DNA from: a virus
Reading direction: 5' to 3' (one strand)
UHGV virus genome: UHGV-0261881
DNA: 12,078 nucleotides
The notes below the pieces were generated by a model that saw only the letters and a list, made by a program, of their open reading frames with translations, searched no databases and was not told the DNA's origin. Of the stretch, positions 1 to 11,947 are shown one piece after another. The number at the start of each line of letters is the position of its first letter. Positions within the stretch are counted from its first letter, which is position 1. The translations under genes and the position numbers were made by a program.

Positions 1-246
1 GCGGGTAGGTGTACCAAAAATAATGGCGTCGTAATCGGCCAGTTCTTGCGGGGTTGCAACCGGTGCAGTTTGCGTTTTACCGCCTGCTTTTTCAAATAAT
101 TGCGGCGGCATGGTTTCCGGTACACGCTTAACGACAACTTCTGCGCCATCCACTTTGCTTGCACCCTCAGCGACTGCGCGTGCCATCGTTTCAATATGTC
201 CGTACATGGAATAATAAAGCACTAGTATTCTTGCCTTAACACTCAT
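1..246 (-). CDS. wrbA: NAD(P)H:quinone oxidoreductase WrbA, N-terminal 82 codons (3' end runs off the window); first 8 codons supplied by the inserted element
   Basis: Minus-strand translation from ATG at 246-244 gives [82 protein letters not shown]. From VLYYSMYGH onward this matches the WrbA N-terminus as I recall it ([31 protein letters not shown]...). SD aggaga sits 8 nt upstream on the minus strand (plus 254-259). Confidence 0.92.
216..225. other. attL junction (host wrbA side | element side), crossover within or next to AAAGCAC
   Basis: Sequence ggaataatAAAGCAC|tagtattc: left part matches wrbA, right part does not. The same AAAGCAC is found at the right junction. Confidence 0.7.
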
Positions 247-297
247 ATCATTGTTCTCCTGTTCAATGAACCACTTAGATAAGCATAGTCCGAAGAT

Positions 298-1941
298 ATG
301 AAGCTGCTAGTGACATACATCAGGTGGAGTACTAAAGAGCAAGACTCAGGAGACTCCTTAAGACGGCAAACAAACCTCATTGATGCTTTCTACTCTAAGC
401 ACAAAAATGATTATTACCTTCTTCCTGCTCACAGATACGTTGATAAGGGTAAATCTGGTTTTCACCAGCAACATAAGAATCAAGGTTCTGACTTCAGACG
501 TATGTTTGAAAATGTTATGTCTGGGGCTATTCCAGAAGGTTCCTTGATTGTTGTAGAGAACTTTGACCGCTTCAGTAGGGCTGATATCGACACAGCTATA
601 GATGATGTCAGGCAGATACTGAGGAAAGGAGTCTCTATACTGACTCTGGGAGATGGTGAACTCTACGACAAATCAGCATTAACAGACCCTGTGAAGTTGA
701 TTAAGCACATCATCATAGCTGAGCGAGCACATCAGGAATCTCTTGTTAAACAAAAGCGTATAGCTCAGGTCTGGAACCATAAAACACAGCTTGCAAGAGA
801 ACTTAAGAAGCCTATGGGTAAGCAAGCCCCCGGATGGTTAGAGCTATCAGATGATGGTTCACACTACATCGTTGATGAAGATAAAGCGTCACTGGTGAAT
901 ATCATCTATGACAAGCGTCTTTCTGGTATGTCGATGTTTGCTATCTGCAAATGGCTAAACGAACAAGGTTACCCGACCATTAATCAGCGTAAGGTCAGAA
1001 TATCCAAGACTAAGAAACCTGATGGTAACTGGTCAGCATTAAGCGTTAAACACATCCTGACTTCACGAAGTGTATTAGGTTACCTTCCCGCTAAGATTTC
1101 TACAGAAGACCGTAAAACAGTGTTACGTGAAGAAATTGAAGGGTTCTATCCTCAGATTGTCACAGACTCTAAGTTTTACGCTGTACAGCAACTGTTAGAG
1201 GAAACAGGGAAGGGGAAAACATCCAGCGGTGAACACTGGCTATATGTGAACATACTGAAGGGGCTTATCCGTTGTAAGTGTGGGCTTGTAATGACTCCTA
1301 CAGGGATACGTAAACCCGTTTATCAAGGTACTTACCGTTGCAATGGTAATAAGGAGTCCCGTTGTAGCTACGGTACAGTGTCCAGAAAGTTACTTGATAC
1401 ACAGCTTTGTAGTCGTCTGTTTAGCAAACTGTCACAGCTACACGATGAAGCTACCGATACAGCTAAATTAGATGAACTGCAACGCAGACTAAACACCGTT
1501 GATAGTGAACTGGAAAAACTCACTGAGACGCTGATACAGCTTCCTAACATCACTCAGATTCAAGAAGCACTACGGGTTAAACAGGAAGAAAAAGATGAAC
1601 TGATAGTTCAGTTATCACGAGAAAAGGCGAGGGTAAAATCTGTATCAAGCTTGGATTTAAGCGGTCTTGATATGGAGTCTGTAGAGGGGAGAACTGAAGC
1701 CCAGATTATTATTAAGCGTTTGGTGAAAGAGATTGTTGTTTCTGGTAATGAAAAGCTGGTGGATATATATCTTCACAATGGAAATATGATTCGTGGTTTT
1801 CCTCTTGATGGTAAAGATGACCACACCTTAACGCTTGAAGAAGCAACCGATGAGATGCAGTCATTAGATGATATGCTTATTTTTGGTGAACCAGTAACAA
1901 GGATTTATCCTGCTGGTGATATGGAAGAGGTGGACGCTTAG
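298..1941 (+). CDS. Large serine recombinase (integrase), 547 aa
   Basis: N-terminal catalytic motifs YIRWSTKEQ (catalytic Ser), [15 protein letters not shown] and ERAHQESL. Cys-rich stretch IRCKCG...[14 protein letters not shown] consistent with a recombinase zinc ribbon. Coiled-coil-like C-terminal region ([21 protein letters not shown]). ATG start at 298. Position next to the att junction. Confidence 0.88.
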
Positions 1942-1944
1942 GAA

Positions 1945-1960
1945 TTGGTATTGTTACCAA
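1945..1960. terminator. Hairpin between convergent genes (TTGGTA-ttgt-TACCAA), possible bidirectional terminator without a clear U-tract
   Basis: Perfect 6-bp inverted repeat with a 4-nt loop, exactly filling the gap between the integrase stop (1939-1941) and the minus-strand gene stop (1961-1963). Confidence 0.3.
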
Positions 1961-2734
1961 TCAATAAGTGCCCTTCTTATTCGGATTCACACTAAATTTC
2001 CGTAAAGCATTACCCGACTTAAGCACTTTTGAAGCCTGCTCATTAGCTGAGGCTGTGAAGGTGCTTACACCATCTTTCACCGTGACATTTTTAGAGCAAT
2101 TGCTACGGACCCTTAGCGCTTCATCAGATAGCTCAGATGCTGAGTAGCTATACAGTTCCTGACACATCAACATAGGTGCGTTATTGCGTTCAGTAGTCAC
2201 GTTACCCGCATTCTTCTTAGAAGTTGCGCCACCATCATTTGTGGTAGCGGCCTTTCCAGTTGCAGCAGAGATATCAGTCTGACCAACAACAGCTTTAAAG
2301 TTAATTTCCTGAAAAGTTAGCTGGATTCTTAGACCATTTGAAATACCAACATCTTTAGATGCTTTAAAGCTTGTAATAATGGAATCATCAATTTTAATTC
2401 CGTCCTTACAGATAACAGAAATAATTTGCTTCTGGTCACGCCAGCTTTCAAGAGTGTCAATGAAGTTTTCTACTAATTGACCCTGACGAGTTAATAATAA
2501 GCTTCCTTCATAGCCAACTACAACGACACCACTAATAGTGATTGTTCTGGGTGCTCTTTGCACATTATCTGTGACGGTTTGCCCTGATTGCATGTTCTGT
2601 GTAGTCACCTGCATAGGGCTATCAAATTCCATGTTTTCAGTTGCTGATAAGGTTAAGAAGGCATCTACATTGTCTCTTAAGTGGAAATAGATGCCATCTT
2701 TGCCACTGTAACGAATCTGATTAGAGTAAATCAT
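1961..2734 (-). CDS. Hypothetical protein, 257 aa; weak resemblance to a phage distal-tail/structural protein given its position after the tape-measure-like gene
   Basis: Long ORF. The track's TTG start at 2755 is replaced here by the ATG at 2734-2732, which has a strong SD (aaggag, 7 nt upstream on the minus strand). Beta-rich-looking sequence ([15 protein letters not shown]). No catalytic motif recognised. Confidence 0.6.
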
Positions 2735-2813
2735 TAAATTCTCCTTTGATTTCAAAGGCTTAGTGTATTTTAATCATTTTTAACCAAGCCTTTGATATAT
2801 AAGTATTTTCTCT

Positions 2814-2895
2814 GTTAAGCGTGAGCTACGTAAATTCTATTTTTCAGTGCAGGTATTAACTTTGCTTTATTCACGTAGCATTCGACTATTCATAG
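2814..2895 (-). promoter_or_regulatory. Promoter-like cassette, copy A, upstream of the 257-aa gene
   Basis: About 37 bp nearly identical to copy B (taagcgtgagctacgtaaattctatttttcagtg). On the minus strand it reads ...ctgaaaaaTAGAATttacgtagc..., a -10-like TAGAAT with no good -35. Dyad arms GCTACGTAAAT (2825-2835) and ATTCACGTAGC (2869-2879) flank and overlap the -10. Confidence 0.45.
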
Positions 2896-2968
2896 TTGAA
2901 TCGTCATACTAGATAAAGATTAATAGATTGCCATGTGTGGCAATAAATATTAGTAGTTCTAACATTGT

Positions 2969-5044
2969 TTATTCCTCTGGGTAAGCTGAGCTAATCAAGG
3001 TATCTTCCTGCATACGATTAATATGCGATGTGGTTCTTTCATCAATAACCTTTCCATCAAGTACCGTCTGAGTTGTGATATTGATTGTCTGAGGCTGAAT
3101 GTTTACTGACGGCTTGATAACCTTTAAATCTTGTGTGAATGTTTCCACTCGACCTTTCAGATTATTTAATGCTTCAGGTGAAAACTGTGGAACATCTTTT
3201 GATTTGCCCTGAACCATAGCCCATAAAACAGCGGCTAAAGAGTTCATGTCACCAGACAATGCTTGGTCTGTAGGTTCCACCTTTGACCTTACAACTTTGT
3301 CAATTGGATTATCTGACTTACTCATCTGACGTTCATAGAACGGTTTAACAATGGAGTTAATCACATCAGTTGCCATACCGACAATCATTACTTTGGTAAT
3401 TGCATCAGCTACAGATAATTTTCCTTTACCACCTTCAACACTACCGGAACGTGAATTAATTCTTCCTGCTGCTGTATTTGCTACATTTCCAAGCGTGGAA
3501 ATAGCCCTAATTAAGCTCCAGATGCCACCTACAGCACCAATACCAGACCTTACAGCAACAATACCAGCAAGTCCCTTTAATGCACTTAACAGGCCATTTG
3601 CGATACCATCAGCTACAGCTTTTTGAGTGTCATTTAATTCTCTGTAAGCAAGGGTCACTCTGTCAAAGAATCCCTGCACTCGGTAGCTAATCGTGGTTAA
3701 ATCATCAATACCGTTTGACATACTTTTCATCAAGTCGCCAAAATGTTCACCAAGATTTTTAGATTGCCCACCTAGCGAATTAAGTAAATTAGTCAGTGAC
3801 CTTGTAAAGTCTGTTAAACCTTCCTGTGAACCGTCGAACATTAAGGCCAGATTATTATTCCATGAATTAGAAAGGCGGCCTAACTGCGTCTGAGTAGAGT
3901 TAATAATCTTTTCCCATCCACCAGCTTTATCAATCATCCTTCCCATTTCAGCGGATACTTTAGGAAGAACATCTTTAGAAAGAACTTTACCGTCTTTCAT
4001 AGCCTTGTCTAATTCTTCTGTAGTCATCCCAAGGCTTCTGGCAAATAACTGGAAAGCACCTGCCATTCTGTCACCTAATTGACCACGTAGCTCTTCAGCC
4101 TGAATCTTCCCTTTAGAAGCCATCTGCTCGAAAGCTTTCAGAATCCCGTTAATTTCATCAGTACTTAAACCCATTAATCTGGATGTGCCAATCACATTAC
4201 TAAATAAGGATTCTTTCTGGCCTGCATCCATATCACCAGCACCAGCGGAAAACTTAGCAAAACTGCTTAATGTTTCAATCTGGTCAACACCAGTATTATT
4301 AGCAAGATTCTTAACAAATTCTGTAGCTCGTTTAGCACCTTCATCACCTAAAACGAATTGTGCCGCTCGTTGTGATGCTTCTTTTTTCAGACCAACCTCC
4401 ATAATCTTCCTGTAAGCTTCTAAGGCTGTCTGAAAACTATAAATGGCTGTACCTGCTTTGATTGCACTTGTAGCTAATACATCCAGACCATTCGAAGCAT
4501 TTTCACTGTGATTATTTTTGCTGGTGGTCTTGTTAAACTTAGAAAGTGTTTCACGAAGAGACTGATTTAATTTTGCTAACTCACGATTAAAAGCTTCGTT
4601 TCCAAGTGTCTTGGATTTACTACTTAATGCGTAAAACTGACTCTTAATGTATTTCTCGACAATTGGGTTAAGACCTTTCAGCTTGCTCATATTCGCTGAA
4701 TAAGCTGCTGTGATTGCTCTGTTTCCGCTAATTCGTGGTTGCCTTGATTGTTTTGGAGGATTAACAGTGTCATTAAATCTGGTGGCAAACTGAAATGCTT
4801 TTGTGCTTCTTGCTCTCTGTTCAATCTTGTCAAAGGTCTTATTAAACTTCCTTTCAAGCTGCCCTAAAGAACTTGTCAGATTGCTGTCAAGTTGCTTGGT
4901 ATCGACCTTAAACGCTCTATTCAAATTGCGTTCAATTCTTTGTGCTGACTGCAAAGCTGCCTTTTCAACTCTTTGCAAGCCCTTAATAACGTTTTCACTG
5001 AAACTAAGTTCAACGATAAAACTATCAACTGTGAATTTGCTCAT
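2969..5044 (-). CDS. Tape-measure-like protein (phage tail length tape measure domain), 691 aa
   Basis: Central block GLSTDEINGILKAFEQMASKGKIQAEELRGQLGDRMAGAFQLFARSLGMTTEELDKAMKDGKV resembles the tape-measure core domain. Gly/Ala-rich hydrophobic segment (GLLSALKGLAGIVAVRSGIGAVGGIWSLIRAISTLG) and coiled-coil-like N-terminus are typical of tape measure proteins. ATG start with SD agaggtg. Confidence 0.65.
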   Translation of the reverse strand: MSKFTVDSFIVELSFSENVIKGLQRVEKAALQSAQRIERNLNRAFKVDTKQLDSNLTSSLGQLERKFNKTFDKIEQRARSTKAFQFATRFNDTVNPPKQSRQPRISGNRAITAAYSANMSKLKGLNPIVEKYIKSQFYALSSKSKTLGNEAFNRELAKLNQSLRETLSKFNKTTSKNNHSENASNGLDVLATSAIKAGTAIYSFQTALEAYRKIMEVGLKKEASQRAAQFVLGDEGAKRATEFVKNLANNTGVDQIETLSSFAKFSAGAGDMDAGQKESLFSNVIGTSRLMGLSTDEINGILKAFEQMASKGKIQAEELRGQLGDRMAGAFQLFARSLGMTTEELDKAMKDGKVLSKDVLPKVSAEMGRMIDKAGGWEKIINSTQTQLGRLSNSWNNNLALMFDGSQEGLTDFTRSLTNLLNSLGGQSKNLGEHFGDLMKSMSNGIDDLTTISYRVQGFFDRVTLAYRELNDTQKAVADGIANGLLSALKGLAGIVAVRSGIGAVGGIWSLIRAISTLGNVANTAAGRINSRSGSVEGGKGKLSVADAITKVMIVGMATDVINSIVKPFYERQMSKSDNPIDKVVRSKVEPTDQALSGDMNSLAAVLWAMVQGKSKDVPQFSPEALNNLKGRVETFTQDLKVIKPSVNIQPQTINITTQTVLDGKVIDERTTSHINRMQEDTLISSAYPEE

Positions 5045-5057
5045 TCATGTTTCACCT

Positions 5058-5140
5058 CTTTAAGCGTGAGCTACGTAAATTCTATTTTTCAGTGTGGATA
5101 TTAGCTTTACAGATTTCATGTAGCACACATAGGATTCGAT
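5058..5140 (-). promoter_or_regulatory. Promoter-like cassette, copy B, immediately upstream of the tape-measure-like gene
   Basis: Same core as copy A. -10-like TAGAAT on the minus strand (plus 5079-5084) sits about 35 nt upstream of the ATG at 5044. Lies between an intrinsic terminator (5160-5201) and the gene start. Confidence 0.5.
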
Positions 5141-5159
5141 AGAAGACTATCTCATATAC

Positions 5160-5201
5160 AAAAAAGGGAGAAACTACCGATATCACTCGATAATCTCTCC
5201 C
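5160..5201 (-). terminator. Rho-independent terminator after the 67-aa gene
   Basis: Minus strand reads GGGAGAgattatcgagtgatatcggtagttTCTCCC followed by TTTTTT: 6-bp GC-rich stem plus U-tract, about 25 nt downstream of the stop at 5227. Confidence 0.6.
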
Positions 5202-5226
5202 GTTGATTTTCACCCAACCAATCTTT

Positions 5227-5430
5227 TTACCTAACCAGATAATAATTACCATCTTCACCGACAATCTGACAATCACTTGGTAATTTATCAAGACACCATT
5301 TAGCGATTCTTCTGATTCTGTTATTTTGCTTAGAGGTGGATGATTTGATTCGTTTTGGTTTGTTGGGTTGTTCTTTCAGTCGTTCACTAATTGCCTTGAT
5401 GAGTTCATAGCGTTCTGTTAAATCAATCAT
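5227..5430 (-). CDS. Hypothetical small basic protein, 67 aa
   Basis: ATG start with a strong SD (aaggaggtg). N-terminus MIDLTERYEL is paralogous to the upstream 102-aa protein (MSDLTERDKR). Confidence 0.55.
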   Translation of the reverse strand: MIDLTERYELIKAISERLKEQPNKPKRIKSSTSKQNNRIRRIAKWCLDKLPSDCQIVGEDGNYYLVR

Positions 5431-5455
5431 TCACCACCTCCTTTTTAATTCGATT

Positions 5456-5764
5456 TTAATCTAAGTAGTGTATACACTCGACACCGCGTTCATTCTTTTG
5501 AATTTCATAACGTAGTGAAAGACCAGTTTGATAATACACAGTATCAAGCTTATTTATCTTATCCTTGAGTTCGATAAGAAGTCGCGTTAAATCATCCCGA
5601 CCATCACACTTTAGTTCGGCAAGAGGCTTTTCTTCCATACGACCAATAAGATATTCAGTGACCTCCTGAATATCACCAAGAGTCATTTTAATTTCATTGA
5701 ACCTATCTTCAAAAGGCTCCATCACCCATTTCATTCTTTTATCGCGTTCTGTTAAATCACTCAT
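5456..5764 (-). CDS. Hypothetical small acidic protein, 102 aa
   Basis: ATG start. Its start overlaps the stop region of the upstream 234-aa gene (5764 versus 5773), suggesting translational coupling. Shares the M-x-DLTER N-terminus with the 67-aa protein. Confidence 0.6.
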   Translation of the reverse strand: MSDLTERDKRMKWVMEPFEDRFNEIKMTLGDIQEVTEYLIGRMEEKPLAELKCDGRDDLTRLLIELKDKINKLDTVYYQTGLSLRYEIQKNERGVECIHYLD

Positions 5765-5772
5765 TATTCACC

Positions 5773-6477
5773 TCAAACAGCCTTGCTAAATTCTCGTGGA
5801 ACACTCAGAAAATCATTGAAGCTGATAATCTGTGCCAACTCTTGACGGTACTCCTTAGCCAGCGCTTGATGGTCACTAATCAGCTTAGCCAGTCTTGATT
5901 TCAGCAATTTAATCTCATTTTCTCTTGCTTTCATCAGTTTCTCTTTGGCAATTTCTTCAAGCTCAGCTTGTGATTTATCAGCAACAATTAGAGACAGTTG
6001 ATGTGGCGCTCTGATGGCCCTTTCCGTACGAATAACCCTTTGACCTTCTGGTAAATCTGCAATCACTTTACCAATCTCTACAGGGTCATACCCCCAACCG
6101 TCACGGTCTAGTCGAGAGAAATAAGCATAAGGATTGGTTTGAAGCTCCATCAAAATAGCCATTTCGTCGATTTCGTCTTCAAGCTTGGACTGAATTTTCT
6201 CGTAAACACTTCTCATTGCTTCTTGAGAGTCTTTAATAGCTTGGAAATATCGGCGTTGCAGCTTCAGTTTCAAATCAAGCTCACATTTCTCATTCATCGA
6301 AAAATCAATTTCAACTCTTGGAATCTCGAGTGGTTCTGGTGGAATATATGGACCTTTATTTACTTCGTGTGATTCCCGCCAAGCTCTATCAAAAGATTCA
6401 CGCAAAGTTAATTCGTGAATATCAAGTGCACTTGGTCTGTTCTCAACAATCATTTCATTTTCATCACGGATAGCCAT
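5773..6477 (-). CDS. Hypothetical protein, 234 aa, charged and coiled-coil-rich
   Basis: Long ORF with ATG start. Its SD (agaagagga) lies inside the 3' arm of an 11-bp hairpin. No motif recognised. Confidence 0.6.
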   Translation of the reverse strand: MAIRDENEMIVENRPSALDIHELTLRESFDRAWRESHEVNKGPYIPPEPLEIPRVEIDFSMNEKCELDLKLKLQRRYFQAIKDSQEAMRSVYEKIQSKLEDEIDEMAILMELQTNPYAYFSRLDRDGWGYDPVEIGKVIADLPEGQRVIRTERAIRAPHQLSLIVADKSQAELEEIAKEKLMKARENEIKLLKSRLAKLISDHQALAKEYRQELAQIISFNDFLSVPREFSKAV

Positions 6478-6487
6478 TAATATTTTT

Positions 6488-6556
6488 CCTCTTCTAAGAT
6501 AATTTACGTTTCAGTTTTTAAAAAGCACACCTGACAACCTACGAACTTAGAAGAGG
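6488..6556 (-). promoter_or_regulatory. 5'-UTR hairpin sequestering the SD of the 234-aa gene
   Basis: Perfect 11-bp inverted repeat CCTCTTCTAAG (6488-6498) / CTTAGAAGAGG (6546-6556) with a 47-nt loop. On the minus-strand mRNA the 3' arm contains the SD, 10 nt before the ATG. Confidence 0.5.
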
Positions 6557-6594
6557 CTTAAAAGGCGTTTGCCAAGTATGCTTTTTAAAAGCTG

Positions 6595-6631
6595 AAAAAA
6601 GCCCTAGATAACTAAAACGCTATAAAGGGCT
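6595..6631 (-). terminator. Rho-independent terminator ending the upstream minus-strand operon
   Basis: Minus strand reads AGCCCTttatagcgttttagttatctAGGGCT followed by TTTTT(T). Confidence 0.5.
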
Positions 6632-6949
6632 AAGGTGAAGAAATTAAAACATCTAAAGGATTCAATAACGAATGAACAAGAGTACTTTTCGAGATGACCT
6701 CTCAGGTTATATAAGAGGTCATGTAGCGAAAAGCATTGCACCTTTCCAAATCAGAATATCCATCCATCGGATTATTGAAAATATGATTTTAGGAAGAGTT
6801 GCTCTTCCCTATAATTAAAATTATGTCATACTTAAGGTTATTTGTCAACAGCCTTTTAACAGATTGGTAACATCAATTTCTATTTACTGTGTTGCCTACC
6901 CAGCAACCAACAAATAAGCCAAGCAACGTCCAAGCAATTATTAAGCCCA

Positions 6950-7279
6950 TTAGTGAACCCTCACAGAATCCGTAACCAAAATATTGTCGCTGTACAGGAT
7001 TGTCACAGCACCTTTCAAAAATTGCTCTGGGGAAATACTGTATTTGTTCGTTTGCTCGATAACCAATCTTTTCATGTTGCTGTCTTTAATTGGTAGCATC
7101 ATTCGAGGCTCGTTAAACTCCACCGACTGAATAAAGTCAGAGATGCTTTCCGCATTATCAGTCATTAACTCTAACAACTTATCAAAGTCAACGCTAACAC
7201 CTACATCAGCGAAAGCCTGAATCATCATGGCGGTGTCGGTATCAATAAAAATCTGTAGTGGGAAGTTTAATTCTCTCAT
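6950..7279 (-). CDS. Hypothetical protein, 109 aa
   Basis: ATG start with SD aaggag. Lies immediately downstream (minus strand) of structured repeat copy 1. Confidence 0.55.
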   Translation of the reverse strand: MRELNFPLQIFIDTDTAMMIQAFADVGVSVDFDKLLELMTDNAESISDFIQSVEFNEPRMMLPIKDSNMKRLVIEQTNKYSISPEQFLKGAVTILYSDNILVTDSVRVH

Positions 7280-7304
7280 TTCTTAAAATCTCCTTTTTAC
7301 CAGA

Positions 7305-7430
7305 CCTCCTCAATCGCTCTGTAACGAGCTAAACAGTCTTTTTCAGGGGTAGCCTGTACAGTGGTATTACCCACCCTAAAATAAGGTAGTTTTTTGCGTT
7401 AGAATGCGATTGAGAGCGTCTGAGAAGCTG
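7305..7430 (+). repeat. Structured inverted-terminus repeat (SIR), copy 1, between the HNH-like gene and the 109-aa gene
   Basis: Aligns base-for-base in the same order with copy 2 (same orientation) and with the reverse complement of copy 3. Shared blocks GCTCTGTAACGAG, CAGGGGTAG, TACCCACCCTAAAATAA, GTTAGAATGCG and AGAGCGTCTGAGAAGCT. Termini are mutually complementary (CTCAATCGC / GCGATTGAG). Confidence 0.75.
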
Positions 7431-7435
7431 TTTTT

Positions 7436-7723
7436 CTAATTTCTCTTAAAGTCTCGGACTTGCATAAGATTTTTTGGTCTGGTATCGGCTCTGTTACCAT
7501 TTCGATGGATAATTTGCTTGTTGGATTGATAGCCATGATAAAGGAACCAGACAACATATTTCACGTAGAAAGTATATCGGCCTATATTAAATGTTTTGTT
7601 GCCGTAGTCGTCGGTATTTATCGTGACTGACTCTCCATCAGACCAGCACAGGGAATCACTGGATTCATCATAGATAAGGTGTTCTGTAAAATATCGTCTA
7701 ACATCTTCATGCCAAGGTTTCAT
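7436..7723 (-). CDS. Small HNH-family endonuclease-like protein, 95 aa
   Basis: C-terminal YVKYVVWFLYHGYQSNKQIIHRNGNRADTRPKNLMQV resembles the HNH motif of phage-type HNH nucleases (consensus-like ...W..hnG...IDHINGN..DNR..NLR). ATG start overlaps the upstream gene by 4 nt. Confidence 0.55.
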   Translation of the reverse strand: MKPWHEDVRRYFTEHLIYDESSDSLCWSDGESVTINTDDYGNKTFNIGRYTFYVKYVVWFLYHGYQSNKQIIHRNGNRADTRPKNLMQVRDFKRN

Positions 7724-7935
7724 AAAACCTCCTCACCCCAATAACCTAATTCAATCTTGTGACGCTCAAACCATTCCGGTTTAACTGCTGTTTTCAGTAC
7801 TTCATTTGGGTCAATGGCTTTAATGAAAATATCTTTTGAGTTATGGATGTCACCGAATCCGTTTCCTTTAATCAGGAGGTCGGAGATGTAGCGAATCATT
7901 TTATCTGTGTGGTATTCAAAGGTAACGCATAGCAT
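7720..7935 (-). CDS. Hypothetical protein, 71 aa
   Basis: ATG start overlapping the upstream stop (TAATG). Part of a tightly coupled operon. Confidence 0.5.
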   Translation of the reverse strand: MLCVTFEYHTDKMIRYISDLLIKGNGFGDIHNSKDIFIKAIDPNEVLKTAVKPEWFERHKIELGYWGEEVL

Positions 7936-8213
7936 TAAACCTCCATCGCTAACTTGTGAATCTTAAGACTCAATAGACGGGCAATATCAATTTTAAAGCC
8001 GTTAAGTGCCTTCAAAGTATCTAAAGCGTCCTGACTAATTCGGATGTGCTTACGACCTTTAGAGACTGGATATTTAAGTAAATCCGACTCAGTGACCTCT
8101 TTAGCAATTGCAAGTTGCATAATAGTTTGATGAGGTAAGTTAGTTGCTTGTTTAATTCTGGTAAGCTCGTTAAAAGCTTCCTCTGAAATACGGGTTAATG
8201 TGTGTTTATTCAT
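7935..8213 (-). CDS. Putative ribbon-helix-helix (RHH)-like DNA-binding protein, 92 aa
   Basis: N-terminus KHTLTRISEEAFNELTRIKQATNLPHQTIMQLAIAKE fits a strand-helix-helix pattern like CopG/Arc-type RHH. A second similar pattern (HIRISQDALDTLKALNGFKIDIARLL) follows. Stop of the upstream gene directly abuts its ATG. Confidence 0.4.
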   Translation of the reverse strand: MNKHTLTRISEEAFNELTRIKQATNLPHQTIMQLAIAKEVTESDLLKYPVSKGRKHIRISQDALDTLKALNGFKIDIARLLSLKIHKLAMEV

Positions 8214-8768
8214 TTAAAATTCCTCTGTAACTAAATACGGGTCAAACTCGAAATCTGGTTCACTAATCGTAAGGCTGATATTGCCCACTTCCGCATGATG
8301 ATTAATTGTCTCAATAACTTTCATGCAAATAGTGGCTAAGTTAGCGCAATATTTATCGCTTGGTAATTCATAGCTAAGTCTGGTTGCTTGTCTTTGAAGA
8401 TGGCTCGTCACTGTGCTTGAGCTAATCTTATCAAGGCTTCGAAGCAAATAGAAAATCTTCCGGTGATAGTTATCCCTTCCAAAGCTGCGACAAGTGCCGA
8501 TAATTACATCTTCAATTCGTGATGGTAGTTGCTCGTAAGAATCAAAGCCCATCAAGAAAGTTTTTAAAGTATTTTCTTTTTCTTTGCGTGTTGGCATATA
8601 TCTGTCTCGTGGCGTAATGCTACGAATGACCGCTTCAATGTTCTTACGTTCGGATTTGCTAAAGGTTGGGACTTCGTAGCTGGTGGGGGTGTCTGTGTAG
8701 CTGTAACCGTTGCTTCTGTTTCTTGCTTTGCTCTCTTCAAGAAACTTTTGAAAATCTTTGTCGTTCAT
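8214..8768 (-). CDS. Hypothetical protein, 184 aa, first gene of the operon
   Basis: ATG start 43 nt downstream of a consensus-like promoter. No motif recognised. Confidence 0.6.
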   Translation of the reverse strand: MNDKDFQKFLEESKARNRSNGYSYTDTPTSYEVPTFSKSERKNIEAVIRSITPRDRYMPTRKEKENTLKTFLMGFDSYEQLPSRIEDVIIGTCRSFGRDNYHRKIFYLLRSLDKISSSTVTSHLQRQATRLSYELPSDKYCANLATICMKVIETINHHAEVGNISLTISEPDFEFDPYLVTEEF

Positions 8769-8817
8769 TCATAAGCTGGCCCTTATAATTGTTAATTTCC
8801 TGTTAACTATATATACA

Positions 8818-8846
8818 ATCTTAGCAGTTTCAAAGGCTAATGTCAA
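8818..8846 (-). promoter_or_regulatory. Sigma70-type promoter of the minus-strand four-gene operon
   Basis: Minus strand reads TTGACA (plus 8846-8841), a 17-nt spacer, then TAAGAT (plus 8823-8818). Confidence 0.6.
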
Positions 8847-8854
8847 GCATTTTT

Positions 8855-8884
8855 TTAACATTTGATTAACATTTATGGTATAAT
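8855..8884 (+). promoter_or_regulatory. Extended -10 promoter firing rightward into the ORF-poor region
   Basis: TTAACA (8855-8860), 18-nt spacer, TGgTATAAT (8876-8884). Divergent from the operon promoter. Confidence 0.55.
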
Positions 8885-8917
8885 GGTTTTATGAGAGAGG
8901 GAAAATATAAAGGCGTG

Positions 8918-8975
8918 GCTATGAGGTTTATTCGATAAACCGAATCAACTATGAGAATGGTCACATGGTTATTGC
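8918..8975 (+). repeat. Direct repeat Rep2, copy A (contains cgaatcaactatgag)
   Basis: Homologous to 10493-10592 in the same orientation (ctatgagRtt ... cgaatcaactatgag ... aatggttatt). Confidence 0.6.
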
Positions 8976-8986
8976 ATTGCACACAG

Positions 8987-9082
8987 GCCTCTTCAATCGC
9001 TCTGTAACGAGTTAAATGGCCTCTTCAGGTCAACTCATAAGGTCAGGTACTTTTTGTATCAGAATGCGATTGAGAGCGTCTT
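8987..9082 (+). repeat. Structured repeat (SIR), copy 2 (shorter), forming the leader of a small ORF
   Basis: Shares the 5' block cttcaatcGCTCTGTAACGAG and 3' block AGAATGCGATTGAGAGCGTCT with copy 1. The central part differs. Terminal 8-bp complementarity TCAATCGC / GCGATTGA. Confidence 0.7.
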
Positions 9083-9095
9083 ACAAGGAAAACTA

Positions 9096-9272
9096 ATGGT
9101 AAACCTCCCTCCTGAGCTGGGGTCACCTGATGTTTGGGCTGGTGGAGGTGTGGGTCTGATTGCAGGCCTGCTACTTCGCTACGTCCTCGTCAGAGTGCTT
9201 GTTGTCTTTAAACTGTTCGGTCGTACATGGACGCTTGACCTTAAGGATAATGACCACACAGACCCCCGTTAA
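9096..9272 (+). CDS. Putative small membrane protein, 58 aa
   Basis: ATG at 9096 with SD aagga 7 nt upstream. Translation MVNLPPELGSPDVWAGGGVGLIAGLLLRYVLVRVLVVFKLFGRTWTLDLKDNDHTDPR has one hydrophobic helix and a charged tail. Weak hairpin (CCCCT/AGGGG, 9286-9309) downstream. Confidence 0.35.
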   Translation: MVNLPPELGSPDVWAGGGVGLIAGLLLRYVLVRVLVVFKLFGRTWTLDLKDNDHTDPR

Positions 9273-9391
9273 ACCCCCTTCAAAACCCCTATACCATCTC
9301 GTACAGGGGTATCTTTAGCATTTTGTGCTATCTATTAAAAAATAGCTTGACAGAACCGGAAAGCTGTATTTATCAAGTATTCACCTCTCTG

Positions 9392-9564
9392 ACAGTGATT
9401 TCTAAAAATACTTATTTTTCAATGAGTTGTAATCACCCATATATAGAGAACTGACAAGTCTCTTCACAGAGAACTCTGTAACCTTAACAGTAATTTCTAA
9501 AAATACTTATTTTTCAATGAGTTGTAATCACCCAATATATAAGGCTGTCCAGTACCTTCACAGA
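9392..9564 (+). repeat. Tandem direct repeat, two units of ~80 bp with a 95-bp period
   Basis: Units 9392-9470 and 9487-9564 share a ~55-bp near-identical core (acagtRatttctaaaaatacttatttttcaatgagttgtaatcacccatatata) and a downstream cttcacaga. A GCTCTGTAAC-like motif lies between the units (9474-9482). Confidence 0.7.
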
Positions 9565-10375
9565 TGACTTCAAGCCTTCTTAGCTATCCACTAAGCGGGA
9601 GAAGAGCGATAACCCCAGAGAGGGAAGCTCCCTTCTAATTGGTATTGTTATGAGGATGCTTCATCCGAATCATCTACCAATCCCTAAACCGACTCTCTTA
9701 ACCAGCCCTTTACGTTATTCGTTCACAGTGTTGATAAGTGGTTTTGCCCTCTGTTTCTGTTATCATCGGGCTTACCTTATCAGGGCTTTGAAATGCCCTG
9801 TAACTCCCCTCTTAACGGGAGAGAAAGAACATAGTGACCCCAAGCGAAGCGCCCCTCTAAAAAGATTTTTTAGCTACTTTGTTTAAAAGCACATCAAACG
9901 ATACATTTTATTGATTTAGGTCAAAGACAAAAGCATTGACAAAATGGTAAGATTGTTCACATGACCTTACTTAACAGATTCTTAAGAGCTTTGAAACGGC
10001 CTATTTAACAAGGTCACTACCTACGGTTCTTCGTTTTCCTTCTTTCTAGGTAGTCATCTGTTAAGAGTTTTTCAGTCTTACTCTTAAGAATCACTGTTAA
10101 GATGATACTCTCCCCTTCGGGTTATATCGTATCTCTTCTCCCGTTAAACACCCCTTCCTAACTATCTACATAATCACTTCTAAGAATCTTACAAGGTAAT
10201 ATCCAGACCTCTTATAGTTGACCTGATACAGAAGTTTTACAGGCATACTCTCTAGGTTACTAATCGGGTGCTATCAAGGGCCACTAAACGAGAGAGGGGA
10301 TATGTGACCATAGGGGAACCCCTCCTGTTAAAAAGGCCACTTAGAAGTCTGAGACTTTAGTAAAATCTGTGAATA

Positions 10376-10492
10376 TAGCTTCTCAGGCGCTCTGTAACGC
10401 ATTCTAAGCGATTTTACCCCTTTATTTTAAGGTGGGTGGTACATCCCTATAGACTACCCCTAAAAATGGGGTTAAAACTCGCTACAGAGCTT
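10376..10492 (-). repeat. Structured repeat (SIR), copy 3, inverted relative to copies 1 and 2
   Basis: The reverse complement of 10371-10500 aligns along its length with copy 1 (blocks GCTCTGTAGCGAG, AGGGGTAG, TACCACCCACCTTAAAATAA, GCTTAGAATGCG, AGAGCGCCTGAGAAGCT). Termini are complementary (GCTCTGTAGCG / CGTTACAGAGC). Confidence 0.7.
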
Positions 10493-10592
10493 TCTATGAG
10501 ATTAGCTTCATGAAGTAATTCATTACTGAATCACCTAATCGAATCAACTATGAGGCTTGGTAAGATTGTGCAAAATCTGTACAATGGTTATT
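10493..10592 (+). repeat. Direct repeat Rep2, copy B
   Basis: See Rep2 copy A. Here it abuts SIR copy 3. Confidence 0.55.
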
Positions 10593-10850
10593 TGGCTTCT
10601 GAAAATTTTTACAAAAATCATAGTAGCCCTCTTTGAATCTCATCTTCCCCGAATCTTCAAAAATATCTGACAGATGTCTGTAGCTGCTAAGTACCCGTCA
10701 CACCAGCTATGTGACCCCCTTTGCAAAAAAGCCAAATATCTATTGACTTTCTATGTGAATTGCTATAAAGGCATCTATCTAGACCTTTAACTGTATAAAT
10801 ACACATGACAACAAACGCCCGTTAAGTGTCTATATAAAAAGGTAGCTGTA

Positions 10851-10895
10851 GCTATAGACAACAATTGTGATAATTGATTTAATGGCTATAGACAA
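10851..10895 (+). promoter_or_regulatory. Two direct GCTATAGACAA repeats upstream of the small recombinase gene (candidate operator or binding sites)
   Basis: Identical 11-mers at 10851-10861 and 10885-10895 (34-bp spacing). Related TATATAG-like motifs at 10828-10836 and 10914-10922. Confidence 0.4.
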
Positions 10896-10935
10896 GCAAG
10901 ACAGACCTTTGTTGACTATATAGAGAGATAAGAAC

Positions 10936-11505
10936 ATGCGTACATTCCTTTATGCTCGTGTATCAGTTGATGACCTCACCACACAAAACCAAGTAGAAGC
11001 TGTTAAACGTGCTGGTTATGAAGTCAAACCTTCACGAGTGATTGAGGAAGTTATTAGTGGTGCTACACCAGCTATGGACAGACCACAATTTGTAAAGCTG
11101 GTGGATAAGCTGGAAGAAGGTGATTGTCTTGTAGTGACCAAGATTGACCGCTTAGGAAGGGATAACATTGATGTACAGAAGACCGTCACAATGTTACTGG
11201 ATATGGGTGTGAAGCTAATTTGTTTAGACCTGCCTGTAAAAGACCTTTCAAGTGCTGAAGGTAAACTTATCCTTCAACTATTCAGTACCTTTGCAGAGTT
11301 TGAACTTAACCGCATCAGAGAGCGAACCAGAGAGGGCTTAGAACGAGCTAAAGCACAAGGTAAGGTGTTGGGTCGTCCTGTAGCTAAAAACACTACAGAG
11401 GCCGTTTTAGAGCATAAGGCAAAGGGATTGTCACAAAGTCAGGTTGCAAAGCTTCTGAATCTCTCTGTGAGAACGGTTAGCCGTCACTGGACAAAGACAC
11501 TGTAA
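10936..11505 (+). CDS. Small serine recombinase (resolvase/invertase family), 189 aa
   Basis: Motifs YARVS (catalytic Ser), VVTKIDRLGRD and ERTREGLERAKAQGKVLGRP, plus a C-terminal helix-turn-helix (GLSQSQVAKLLNLSVRTVSRH). ATG start. Confidence 0.88.
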   Translation: MRTFLYARVSVDDLTTQNQVEAVKRAGYEVKPSRVIEEVISGATPAMDRPQFVKLVDKLEEGDCLVVTKIDRLGRDNIDVQKTVTMLLDMGVKLICLDLPVKDLSSAEGKLILQLFSTFAEFELNRIRERTREGLERAKAQGKVLGRPVAKNTTEAVLEHKAKGLSQSQVAKLLNLSVRTVSRHWTKTL

Positions 11506-11526
11506 GAAACTTAGTAGCATCTTCAT

Positions 11527-11550
11527 AGCCTCCTTCATGGGGGCTTTTTT
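11527..11550 (+). terminator. Rho-independent terminator after the small recombinase gene
   Basis: AGCCTCC-ttcat-GGGGGCT stem (one G-U pair) followed by TTTTTT, about 22 nt after the stop. Confidence 0.6.
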
Positions 11551-11558
11551 GTATCCAC

Positions 11559-11626
11559 TCTCTAAGCGTGTCCTACGCAAAATCTCCTGAACACTTACCC
11601 ACCCTCAGAAATAACTTTCACGTAAG
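11559..11626. repeat. Diverged third copy of the promoter-like cassette (copy C), containing a TTACCCACCCT block shared with the SIR repeats
   Basis: ctctaagcgtgtcctacgcaaaatctc resembles the cassette A/B core. The loop contains ttacccaccctcagaaataa, similar to TACCCACCCTAAAATAA in SIR copy 1. 3' arm ctttcacgtaag. Confidence 0.45.
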
Positions 11627-11937
11627 AAACTGTTAAGCAGCTTGATAGTTATTCTGTGTGACCAAACATCTATATATCGTTATATAGTCCTGTATATAGC
11701 ACTTTTCTAGGAGTCGAGAGAGGGACGACTAACACGATACAGTTTACCCTGAAAAGAGACTTCACAGATTCTCTATATATTTCAATAAGTTAGGCTAAAA
11801 AGAGACTATACCGATACTGCATAGAATCTGTGTAAAACTGCTTAGATACTTGGGAAAATGCCTTTAAATTGAATAGGGATTCACCTGATATTGTCCTGTT
11901 ATTAACAGGTAGTTGAATGTACGTGTTTAGCTATGTA

Positions 11938-11947
11938 AAAGCACCAG
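11938..11947. other. attR junction (element side | host wrbA side)
   Basis: Sequence ctatgtaaAAAGCAC|cagaactttagccat: the right part is the reverse complement of the native wrbA start ATGGCTAAAGTTCTGGTGC. Confidence 0.7.

Follow-up and report, generated by a model that had tools for sequence, protein, structure and literature searches.

To our knowledge, PLE of Vibrio cholerae with its phage ICP1 is essentially the only well-studied case of a satellite of a strictly virulent phage. PLE is a small chromosomal island with a large serine recombinase, which is a satellite of the virulent myophage ICP1 and contains no virion genes of its own (in part from PMC9410903). A stretch of 12,078 nucleotides from the virus genome UHGV-0261881 (here called the window) was found to contain an island that resembles PLE in its small size, its integration by a large serine recombinase and its link to a virulent myophage, in this case through tail genes, but that differs from PLE in carrying its own tape-measure and Dit-like tail genes. 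The present report concerns a minus-strand operon within this island (positions 7436–8768 of the window). We tentatively regard it, at slightly less than an even chance, as the early or control operon of an island resembling a satellite. A ribbon-helix-helix (RHH) protein would act as its switch and a 184-aa protein as an adaptor or activator, and the variable slot of the operon would contain a cassette that arose from a homing endonuclease and was domesticated.

Both ends of the window were shown to consist of wrbA sequence, and comparison with an empty wrbA site revealed an insertion of ~11.7 kb. A 10-nt core was found at both island junctions (216–225 and 11938–11947), and the island spans ~226–11947. 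It encodes a large serine recombinase of 547 aa (298–1941), a Dit-like baseplate protein (1961–2755), a tape-measure protein of 691 aa (2969–5044) and, as in only some of the islands, a resolvase/invertase-type serine recombinase of 189 aa (10936–11505); the rest consists of several small genes of unassigned function, the operon and ~2 kb without long open reading frames (ORFs; 8885–10935). Parts of the tape-measure and Dit-like genes showed 92–95% nucleotide identity to Felixounavirus. For the Dit-like gene, ~500 nt were 94–95% identical to many Felixounavirus genomes, and the match to phage garuso extends from this gene into the tape-measure region. No capsid, portal or terminase gene or family was detected anywhere in the window by family scans. 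Island proteins other than these two tail proteins had no phage homologue, also when the small proteins were searched by tblastn, apart from a weak match of the 184-aa protein (see below), and no Felixounavirus homologues were found for the four operon proteins. Judged by its sequence, the island might be a satellite of virulent phages of the Felix O1 type, and its helper is probably one of these phages. Among the features by which satellites are recognized, an own integrase and an att core at wrbA were thus found in the window island itself, and excision to a circle was found for a member of its family.

The cassette region matched 434 of 5426 complete E. coli genomes (~8%), and 222 of these matches covered at least 80% of the region. 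Sister islands with the same gene order were found at yecE (including O157:H7), at tonB-yciI, between dinB and lafU, or at wrbA, and each of these integration sites (four or more) was shown to pair with its own serine recombinase. The family might be linked to SpLE2 of O157 Sakai, a small integrative element. A metagenome contig of 11,141 bp (L040) is circular, as shown by a 126-nt terminal overlap. In this contig, the recombinase end is joined to the resolvase end via a ~13-nt core (junction near L040 positions 2009–2021), and the same core flanks an integrated copy (L014) on both sides. Besides, contig L042 from a different sequencing run showed the same attP-type junction as L040. Since both junctions have the attP form, the island family is considered to excise to a circle, as seen for a family member rather than for the window island. 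No description of the island family or of a Felixounavirus satellite was found in the literature searched.

Four tightly coupled minus-strand genes had been proposed from the sequence in the original prediction, and their coordinates and abutting or overlapping junctions were confirmed. Gene 1 (8768–8214, minus strand) encodes the 184-aa protein that is the hallmark of the family, and gene 2 (8213–7935, minus strand) a 92-aa protein predicted to be a tandem RHH protein, i.e., a single-chain pseudo-dimer similar to TraY and DndE. Gene 3 (7935–7720, minus strand) encodes a 71-aa protein of no recognizable family and gene 4 (7723–7436, minus strand) a 95-aa protein containing a truncated HNH_3 domain of the I-HmuI type without a DNA-binding domain. 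The TAA stop codon of gene 1 (8216–8214) abuts the ATG of gene 2 at 8213, genes 2 and 3 overlap by 1 nt at 7935 in the sequence TAATG (7937–7933), and genes 3 and 4 overlap by 4 nt in the sequence ATGA (7723–7720). Shine-Dalgarno motifs (GAGGA, GGAGG, and GAGGAGG) are located 5–13 nt 5′ of the three internal start codons. All four ORFs are real genes under purifying selection: in comparisons with sister loci, the ratio of non-synonymous to synonymous substitution rates (dN/dS) was 0.16–0.28 for the 184-aa gene, 0.10–0.22 for the 92-aa gene and 0.08–0.50 for the 71-aa gene, and the HNH gene showed 14 synonymous vs. 1 non-synonymous differences summed over three close comparisons. In a consensus scan of the minus strand between the HNH gene and a 109-aa gene (7279–6950, minus strand), no promoter or terminator was predicted within 7280–7435, and only a large hairpin was found there. 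The 109-aa gene, which keeps its position in all islands, is therefore probably the fifth gene of the transcription unit. Thus, the coupling proposed earlier is real, but the unit probably consists of five genes rather than four, and only the first two are constant across the family.

The consensus-like promoter that had been predicted 5′ of the operon was also found. It is a sigma-70-like promoter (TTGACA-17-TAAGAT; 8846–8818, minus strand) with 10 out of 12 matches in a consensus scan; eight related islands share its −35 hexamer and, within its −10 hexamer, the positions T-A-x-x-A-T. A divergent promoter with an extended −10 (TTAACA-18-TGgTATAAT; 8855–8884, plus strand; 11 out of 12 matches with the TG) is predicted to drive a rightward transcript containing a hairpin element (hairpin 2, see below) and a small membrane ORF. 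The sequence TGGTATAATG of this promoter was invariant in the eight islands, and the region of the divergent promoters showed 86–91% identity in sister islands where the 184-aa gene showed only ~61–73%. Two candidate operator halves were identified at these promoters. The left half, TGTTAA-N5-TGTTAA with an 11-bp period (8790–8806, plus strand), is located just 3′ of the predicted leftward transcription start, and the right half, an inverted TGTTAA-N5-TGTTAA (8855–8871, minus strand), overlaps the −35 hexamer of the rightward promoter. This paired motif occurs exactly twice in the window, both times at the divergent promoters, compared to an expected 0.03 occurrences. In the left half, the promoter-proximal half-site TGTTAAC was invariant in the eight islands, and the distal half-site was TGTTAT in three of the eight. 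The 11-bp period and the inverted arrangement of the pairs would suit cooperative binding by an RHH protein.

The rightward transcript is predicted to include a gene for a 58-aa single-pass membrane protein (9096–9272, plus strand), divergent from the operon and preceded by AAGGA 8 nt 5′ of its ATG. The ORF was found to be intact in six sister islands, with 95–98% protein identity, and to encode one predicted transmembrane segment; it was unannotated in the RefSeq records inspected. The protein might be a lysis or exclusion factor. The leader of this transcript contains a 30-nt insertion, CTATGAGGTTTATTCGATAAACCGAATCAA (in window 8920–8950), that is common only to the window and one related island (L012), and the end of the insertion, CGAATCAACTATGAG, recurs near 10540 (10537–10552).

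From these sequences we infer what the operon proteins might bind and regulate, and how the island might depend on a helper. The operon would be the leftward early or control operon of a ~11.7-kb phage-satellite-like integrative island at wrbA. The 92-aa RHH protein would bind the two inverted TGTTAA pairs that overlap the divergent promoters, and this binding would set both the level of its own operon and that of the rightward transcript with hairpin 2 and the 58-aa membrane protein. The 184-aa protein would be a DNA- or protein-associated adaptor whose acidic-aromatic tail would attract a factor of the host or of the helper, serving either activation or the replication of the island, and the 71-aa and HNH genes would form a recently exchanged accessory cassette of homing-endonuclease origin that would no longer encode a canonical nuclease.

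For the 92-aa protein, the AlphaFold2 (AF2) model (predicted local distance difference test, pLDDT, 89.9) showed a beta-alpha-alpha unit occurring twice, with the two units pairing their N-terminal strands. These units occupy all 92 residues, and a toxin-neutralizing tail is absent from the model. TraY and DndE were the closest structural analogues. We predict a DNA-binding protein with two RHH units in tandem on a single chain, and the earlier designation as RHH-like proved to be right, with the caveat of a shallow alignment and two poor AF2 models (see below). Homologues were confined to these enterobacterial islands.

The 184-aa protein had 1072 close homologues in Escherichia, Salmonella, and Citrobacter whereas a library of 1.84 billion clusters contained just 22 representatives, and the family is limited to such islands and a few phages. 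Its core weakly matched Aeromonas phage 85AhydR10PP, which is the sole exception to the lack of phage homologues among the non-tail proteins of the island. The predicted model (pLDDT 77.5) contains a confident helical core (~aa 66–161) and a disordered N-terminal half. The chain ends in an acidic-aromatic tail, EPDFEFDPY, of which the pattern D-F-x-F-D...Y is retained in relatives of only 20–30% identity. Searches of PDB with single operon protein sequences and with a profile of the 184-aa protein were uninformative. Relatives of 27–29% identity were also found in five loci (L005–L009), in elements with tape-measure and resolvase genes; L008 and L009 contain a large serine recombinase as well, and L009 a Dam methylase. 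Since these relatives are located in similar elements, the hallmark class seems to extend beyond the E. coli-type islands. A function as recombination directionality factor was considered and found unlikely, as the alleles do not track recombinase type or integration site: the protein from an island also at wrbA (L001) showed 61% identity to that of the window, whereas the protein from an island at another site (L003) showed 95%.

Across the family, the 184-aa gene and the 92/93-aa gene were always present and adjacent, while the genes located 3′ of them varied. The slot contained the 71-aa and HNH genes in the window, in L001–L003 and in other islands. Elsewhere it contained a second type of HNH gene (type 2) followed by a diverged 71-aa homologue, a type-2 HNH gene with a 128-aa gene, a 128-aa gene alone or a 66-aa gene alone. 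The type-2 HNH protein was 40% identical to that of the window, and the 128-aa protein gave a weak, sub-threshold match to a helix-turn-helix (HTH) domain in its C-terminal part. For the 71-aa protein, homologues were found just in these enterobacterial islands, and no match was obtained in Pfam, PHROG, PADLOC, NCBIfam or PDB. A sliding comparison showed that window positions 7313–7912, which include hairpin 1 (see below), the HNH gene and the 71-aa gene, are 98–100% identical to three islands in which the flanking genes are 52–90% identical. Besides, the synonymous divergence (dS) of the HNH gene was 0.04–0.18, compared to 0.17–1.5 for the 184-aa gene. The high identity of this block and the low dS of the HNH gene suggest that the islands have recently exchanged the 71-aa and HNH genes as a cassette and that the two-gene core is older.

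The 95-aa protein encoded by gene 4 had been described as a small HNH-like protein, which was borne out by a match to Pfam HNH_3 (PF13392) above the gathering score (34.3 vs. 24.8 bits, E = 1.8e-8); it also matched PHROG HNH families. With a small profile, the protein was aligned to I-HmuI (PDB 1u3e) residues 18–92, including the H...N...NL core, and H73 aligned with the general-base His in the sequence VVDHKDGN of I-HmuI. However, Q-I-I-H is found where I-HmuI and gp51 of phage EE36phi1 (HNH-AP2) have V-D-H, and the Asp before the His is a metal ligand in I-HmuI. The chain ends 10 residues after NL and leaves the helix of the motif incomplete, whereas EE36phi1 gp51 runs on for more than 60 residues, and no AP2, HTH or other DNA-binding domain was detected in the alignment. 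The type-2 protein contains Phe in place of the catalytic His and ends 5 residues after NL. Full-length HNH_3-AP2 genes are present elsewhere in sister islands. On the basis of these alignments, both the window and the type-2 HNH proteins are truncated, non-canonical domains, of which that of the window is under strong purifying selection. Profile searches of the four operon proteins against Pfam, PHROGs, PADLOC, and NCBIfam thus supported HNH_3, gave RHH matches only below thresholds and yielded nothing else.

The 98–100% identity of the block 7313–7912 among islands with diverged flanks, the much lower dS of the HNH gene compared to the 184-aa gene and the polymorphism in presence, absence and order of the cassette would also be expected if the 71-aa and HNH pair were a selfish cassette, derived from a homing endonuclease, that spreads by recombination or homing and is tolerated in the operon. 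The relationship of HNH_3 to the I-HmuI family of homing endonucleases and the full-length HNH_3-AP2 genes of the sister islands agree with such an origin, and this explanation is compatible with the control-operon interpretation of genes 1 and 2. Nevertheless, the 14 synonymous vs. 1 non-synonymous differences and the overlap of start and stop codons argue for a domesticated function, and autonomous homing by the 95-aa protein is unlikely because of the lack of a DNA-recognition domain, the missing metal-binding Asp and the truncated motif helix. We rate a purely selfish cassette as rather unlikely.

The original prediction had also regarded the operon as compatible with a toxin-antitoxin or anti-phage module. 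In such a module, which might also act by abortive infection, the RHH protein would serve as antitoxin or repressor, and infection would release the HNH or 184-aa protein as a toxic effector. Type II toxin-antitoxin operons with RHH antitoxins of the CopG, ParD or VapB types share with this operon a small RHH gene coupled to small genes, one of which is nuclease-like; the neighboring RHH and nuclease-like genes are translationally coupled here as well, and the position following the RHH gene is a hotspot of variation. Defence genes are frequent cargo of satellites and islands. However, searches of Pfam, PADLOC, NCBIfam, and PHROGs with the four proteins yielded no toxin or defence family, and the RHH units fill the whole 92-aa chain without a tail for binding and neutralizing a toxin. 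The partner genes are variable, and the HNH gene is absent or replaced in many sister islands while the RHH gene stays; furthermore, the HNH protein lacks the metal-binding Asp and the type-2 protein lacks the catalytic His. An order with the large gene first is also unusual for RHH toxin-antitoxin pairs. Taken together, we consider a module of this kind improbable.

The region 8885–10935 next to the operon contains no long ORFs, and over long stretches it was ~90–98% identical in at least one sister island. A 95-nt tandem duplication was found at 9392–9581, and additional TGTTAA sites are present around 9971–10100. This conserved non-coding region could be an origin or encode a non-coding RNA. 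The operon might alternatively be a replication-initiation module, a possibility that overlaps with the control-operon interpretation. The 184-aa protein would then be an initiator or origin-binding adaptor acting on the adjacent non-coding repeats and recruiting the helper or host replisome by its acidic tail, the RHH protein a DNA-bending accessory factor and the HNH protein an optional nickase. In agreement with this, family scans showed no other candidate replication gene in the island, ~1.5 kb of conserved sequence without long ORFs, with the 95-nt tandem units and hairpins, adjoins the operon, and non-coding gaps of 280–550 nt follow the distant 184-aa homologues too. The acidic-aromatic tail of the 184-aa protein is conserved, and the RHH analogues are TraY, which is associated with the relaxosome, and DndE, which binds nicked DNA. 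On the other hand, the 184-aa protein showed no similarity to Rep, DnaA-like, primase or helicase-loader families, a classical iteron array accompanied by an AT-rich region was not identified, one unit of the 95-nt repeat is missing in L002, and the HNH gene is dispensable and degenerate. A replication-initiation module is thus judged unlikely.

Hairpin elements were found on both sides of the operon. Hairpin 1 (7301–7427; ~127 nt), located between the HNH and 109-aa genes, has a basal stem formed by box A, TCAATCGCTCTGTAACG, and box B, GAATGCGATTGAGAGCG. Hairpin 2 (8984–9087, plus strand) immediately precedes the Shine-Dalgarno sequence of the 58-aa ORF within the 5′ leader of the rightward transcript, and a third, more diverged copy was detected at ~10374–10491. 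Hairpins 1 and 2 are direct repeats that together bracket the operon; they are imperfect hairpins of 104–127 nt with a conserved basal stem. The three copies share the core CGCTCTGTAACG, which gave 4 matches at up to 2 mismatches compared to 0.42 expected. Hairpin 1 showed a predicted fold of −44 kcal/mol (z = −3.6 to −4.7) and was nearly identical in islands with flanking genes of just 34–90% identity; it was nearly invariant also where the RHH or tape-measure proteins showed just 34–42% identity to those of the window. Among 12 distinct hairpin copies, most one-sided changes in the stem leave G.U pairs on the plus strand, and double changes were seen in three pairs.

No match for the hairpins was found in Rfam. 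Several identities were tried for them and rejected: the boxes by eye did not fit the RYYYAAC/GTTRRRY consensus of integron attC sites, and an integron integrase was absent; no U-tract follows the hairpin on the minus strand, as would be expected of an intrinsic terminator; and no match in 50,697 phage records pointed to a sequence copied from a helper phage. Sites for RNA processing or stabilization, protein-binding palindromes or recombination boundaries for cassette exchange are candidate functions.

The hairpins also bear on a redirection of packaging, which had been raised in the original prediction and in which the small HNH protein would cooperate with the helper terminase in packaging the DNA of the island, in the manner of HK97-like cos phages. 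As the island itself lacks packaging genes, it would need those of a helper if it is transferred at all, and the conserved hairpins could serve as recognition sites. In the HNH-terminase packaging module of cos phages (HK97 gp74 type), however, the HNH gene is a neighbor of the terS, terL, and portal genes, none of which is found near the HNH gene of the window, and the island as a whole contains no terminase, portal or capsid gene. Moreover, this HNH protein is of the HNH_3 homing-endonuclease type, truncated, degenerate by loss of the metal-binding Asp and optional in the family. The missing hairpin matches among the phage records and the missing Felixounavirus homologues of the operon proteins point in the same direction, and packaging redirection appears very improbable. 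Overall, the original prediction was correct regarding coupling, promoter, HNH, and RHH, whereas the functions it proposed were not supported by the analyses made and the integrative island with its phage tail genes had been missed.

Additional repeats and variable regions were observed in the island. A 66-nt repeat (85% identical), forming intergenic hairpins, is found 5′ of the Dit-like and tape-measure genes (2815–2880 and 5060–5125). A strong hairpin with 29-bp arms is located at 6509–6597 (z = −5.0), 5′ of a 234-aa gene, and was shown to be the cause of a spurious match to a miRNA family of Rfam at 6499–6612. A 37-nt repeat covers the starts of a 67-aa and a 102-aa gene (5404–5440 and 5738–5774), which have N-termini of the form M(I/S)DLTER; this shared repeat suggests a local duplication. 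In other islands, the region of the resolvase gene contains Dam methylase or HNH-AP2 genes. In the window, 30-nt inverted repeats (9451–9480 and 11738–11767; 73% complementary) with the motif TTCACAGA flank the 189-aa resolvase gene at a distance and might belong to an invertible segment or a res system.

Several observations weigh against the interpretation as the control operon of a satellite-like island. Tail-gene homology is the sole ground for assigning the helper, and matches in IMG/VR were genome or metagenome contigs of 7–55 kb, with no virion contigs of the size of the island among them. The alignment behind the 92-aa model was shallow (18 sequences with at least 71% identity), two of five AF2 models reached just 43–50 pLDDT, and the RHH profile matches were all below thresholds (Pfam DndE 14.5 bits vs. 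a cut-off of 25, VAPB_antitox 13.7 vs. 27.9, and TIGR03184 18.6 vs. 71.85), although the DndE and VapB matches agree with the tandem-RHH model. For the 184-aa protein, structure comparison gave no informative fold match, and the role assigned to it is therefore a guess. The identities of the 184-aa and 92-aa proteins to those of the window were 84 and 54% in L011 and 60 and 94.5% in L012, and such uneven co-variation of alleles argues against a tight specific complex. In addition, residual nicking by the HNH protein of the window is conceivable, given the retained catalytic His and the strong purifying selection.

A bolder form of the control-operon interpretation would make the operon the master control and replication module of an undescribed group of enterobacterial satellites that parasitize virulent Felix O1-type myophages, i.e., an E. 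coli counterpart of the Vibrio PLE. The 184-aa protein would then be a new hallmark adaptor, the RHH protein the switch and the crippled HNH domains domesticated fragments used against or with the helper. We regard this as possible but doubtful.

The value of these results lies mainly in the island family that is anchored by the operon. If the satellite interpretation is true, the family would provide a tractable E. coli system for satellite biology; the family also matters for therapy and biocontrol that use Felix O1-type phages. Being the most conserved non-structural module of the family, the operon is an obvious starting point for genetics, and it offers a hallmark protein without a fold match, a tandem RHH protein with a candidate operator, and HNH_3 domains that have lost catalytic residues yet are under purifying selection. 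Should helper dependence fail, an ordinary regulatory operon of an uncharacterized integrative element would remain.

Compared to described systems, the RHH and HNH_3 folds are of known kinds, while the composition of the operon and its host element appear to be undescribed in the sources searched. The 92-aa protein shares only 6–14% sequence identity with the single-chain tandem RHH proteins TraY of the F plasmid, DndE and AvtR of an archaeal virus, and no relaxase or dnd genes are located near its gene. The 95-aa protein shares an above-threshold Pfam match and the H...N...NL core with the I-HmuI-type HNH_3 homing endonucleases, but it corresponds to the N-terminal half only, with Ile instead of Asp before the His and without the C-terminal DNA-binding domain. 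The arrangement of hairpins 1 and 2 around an operon with an exchangeable cassette is similar to that of the promoter early stem-loop (PeSL) 'mobile regulatory cassettes' of T4-type phages, in which conserved intergenic stem-loops flank exchangeable gene cassettes; the hairpins of the island differ from these in being unrelated in sequence and larger (104–129 nt), and no early promoter was shown inside them. With regard to PLE, protein-family scans matched no PLE or other satellite family, and no direct comparison with PLE proteins was made. The likeness to PLE is seen at the level of the element: an excised circle exists for a relative of the window island, and a small membrane protein is encoded near the island control region, the 58-aa protein recalling LidI, which is encoded by PLE.

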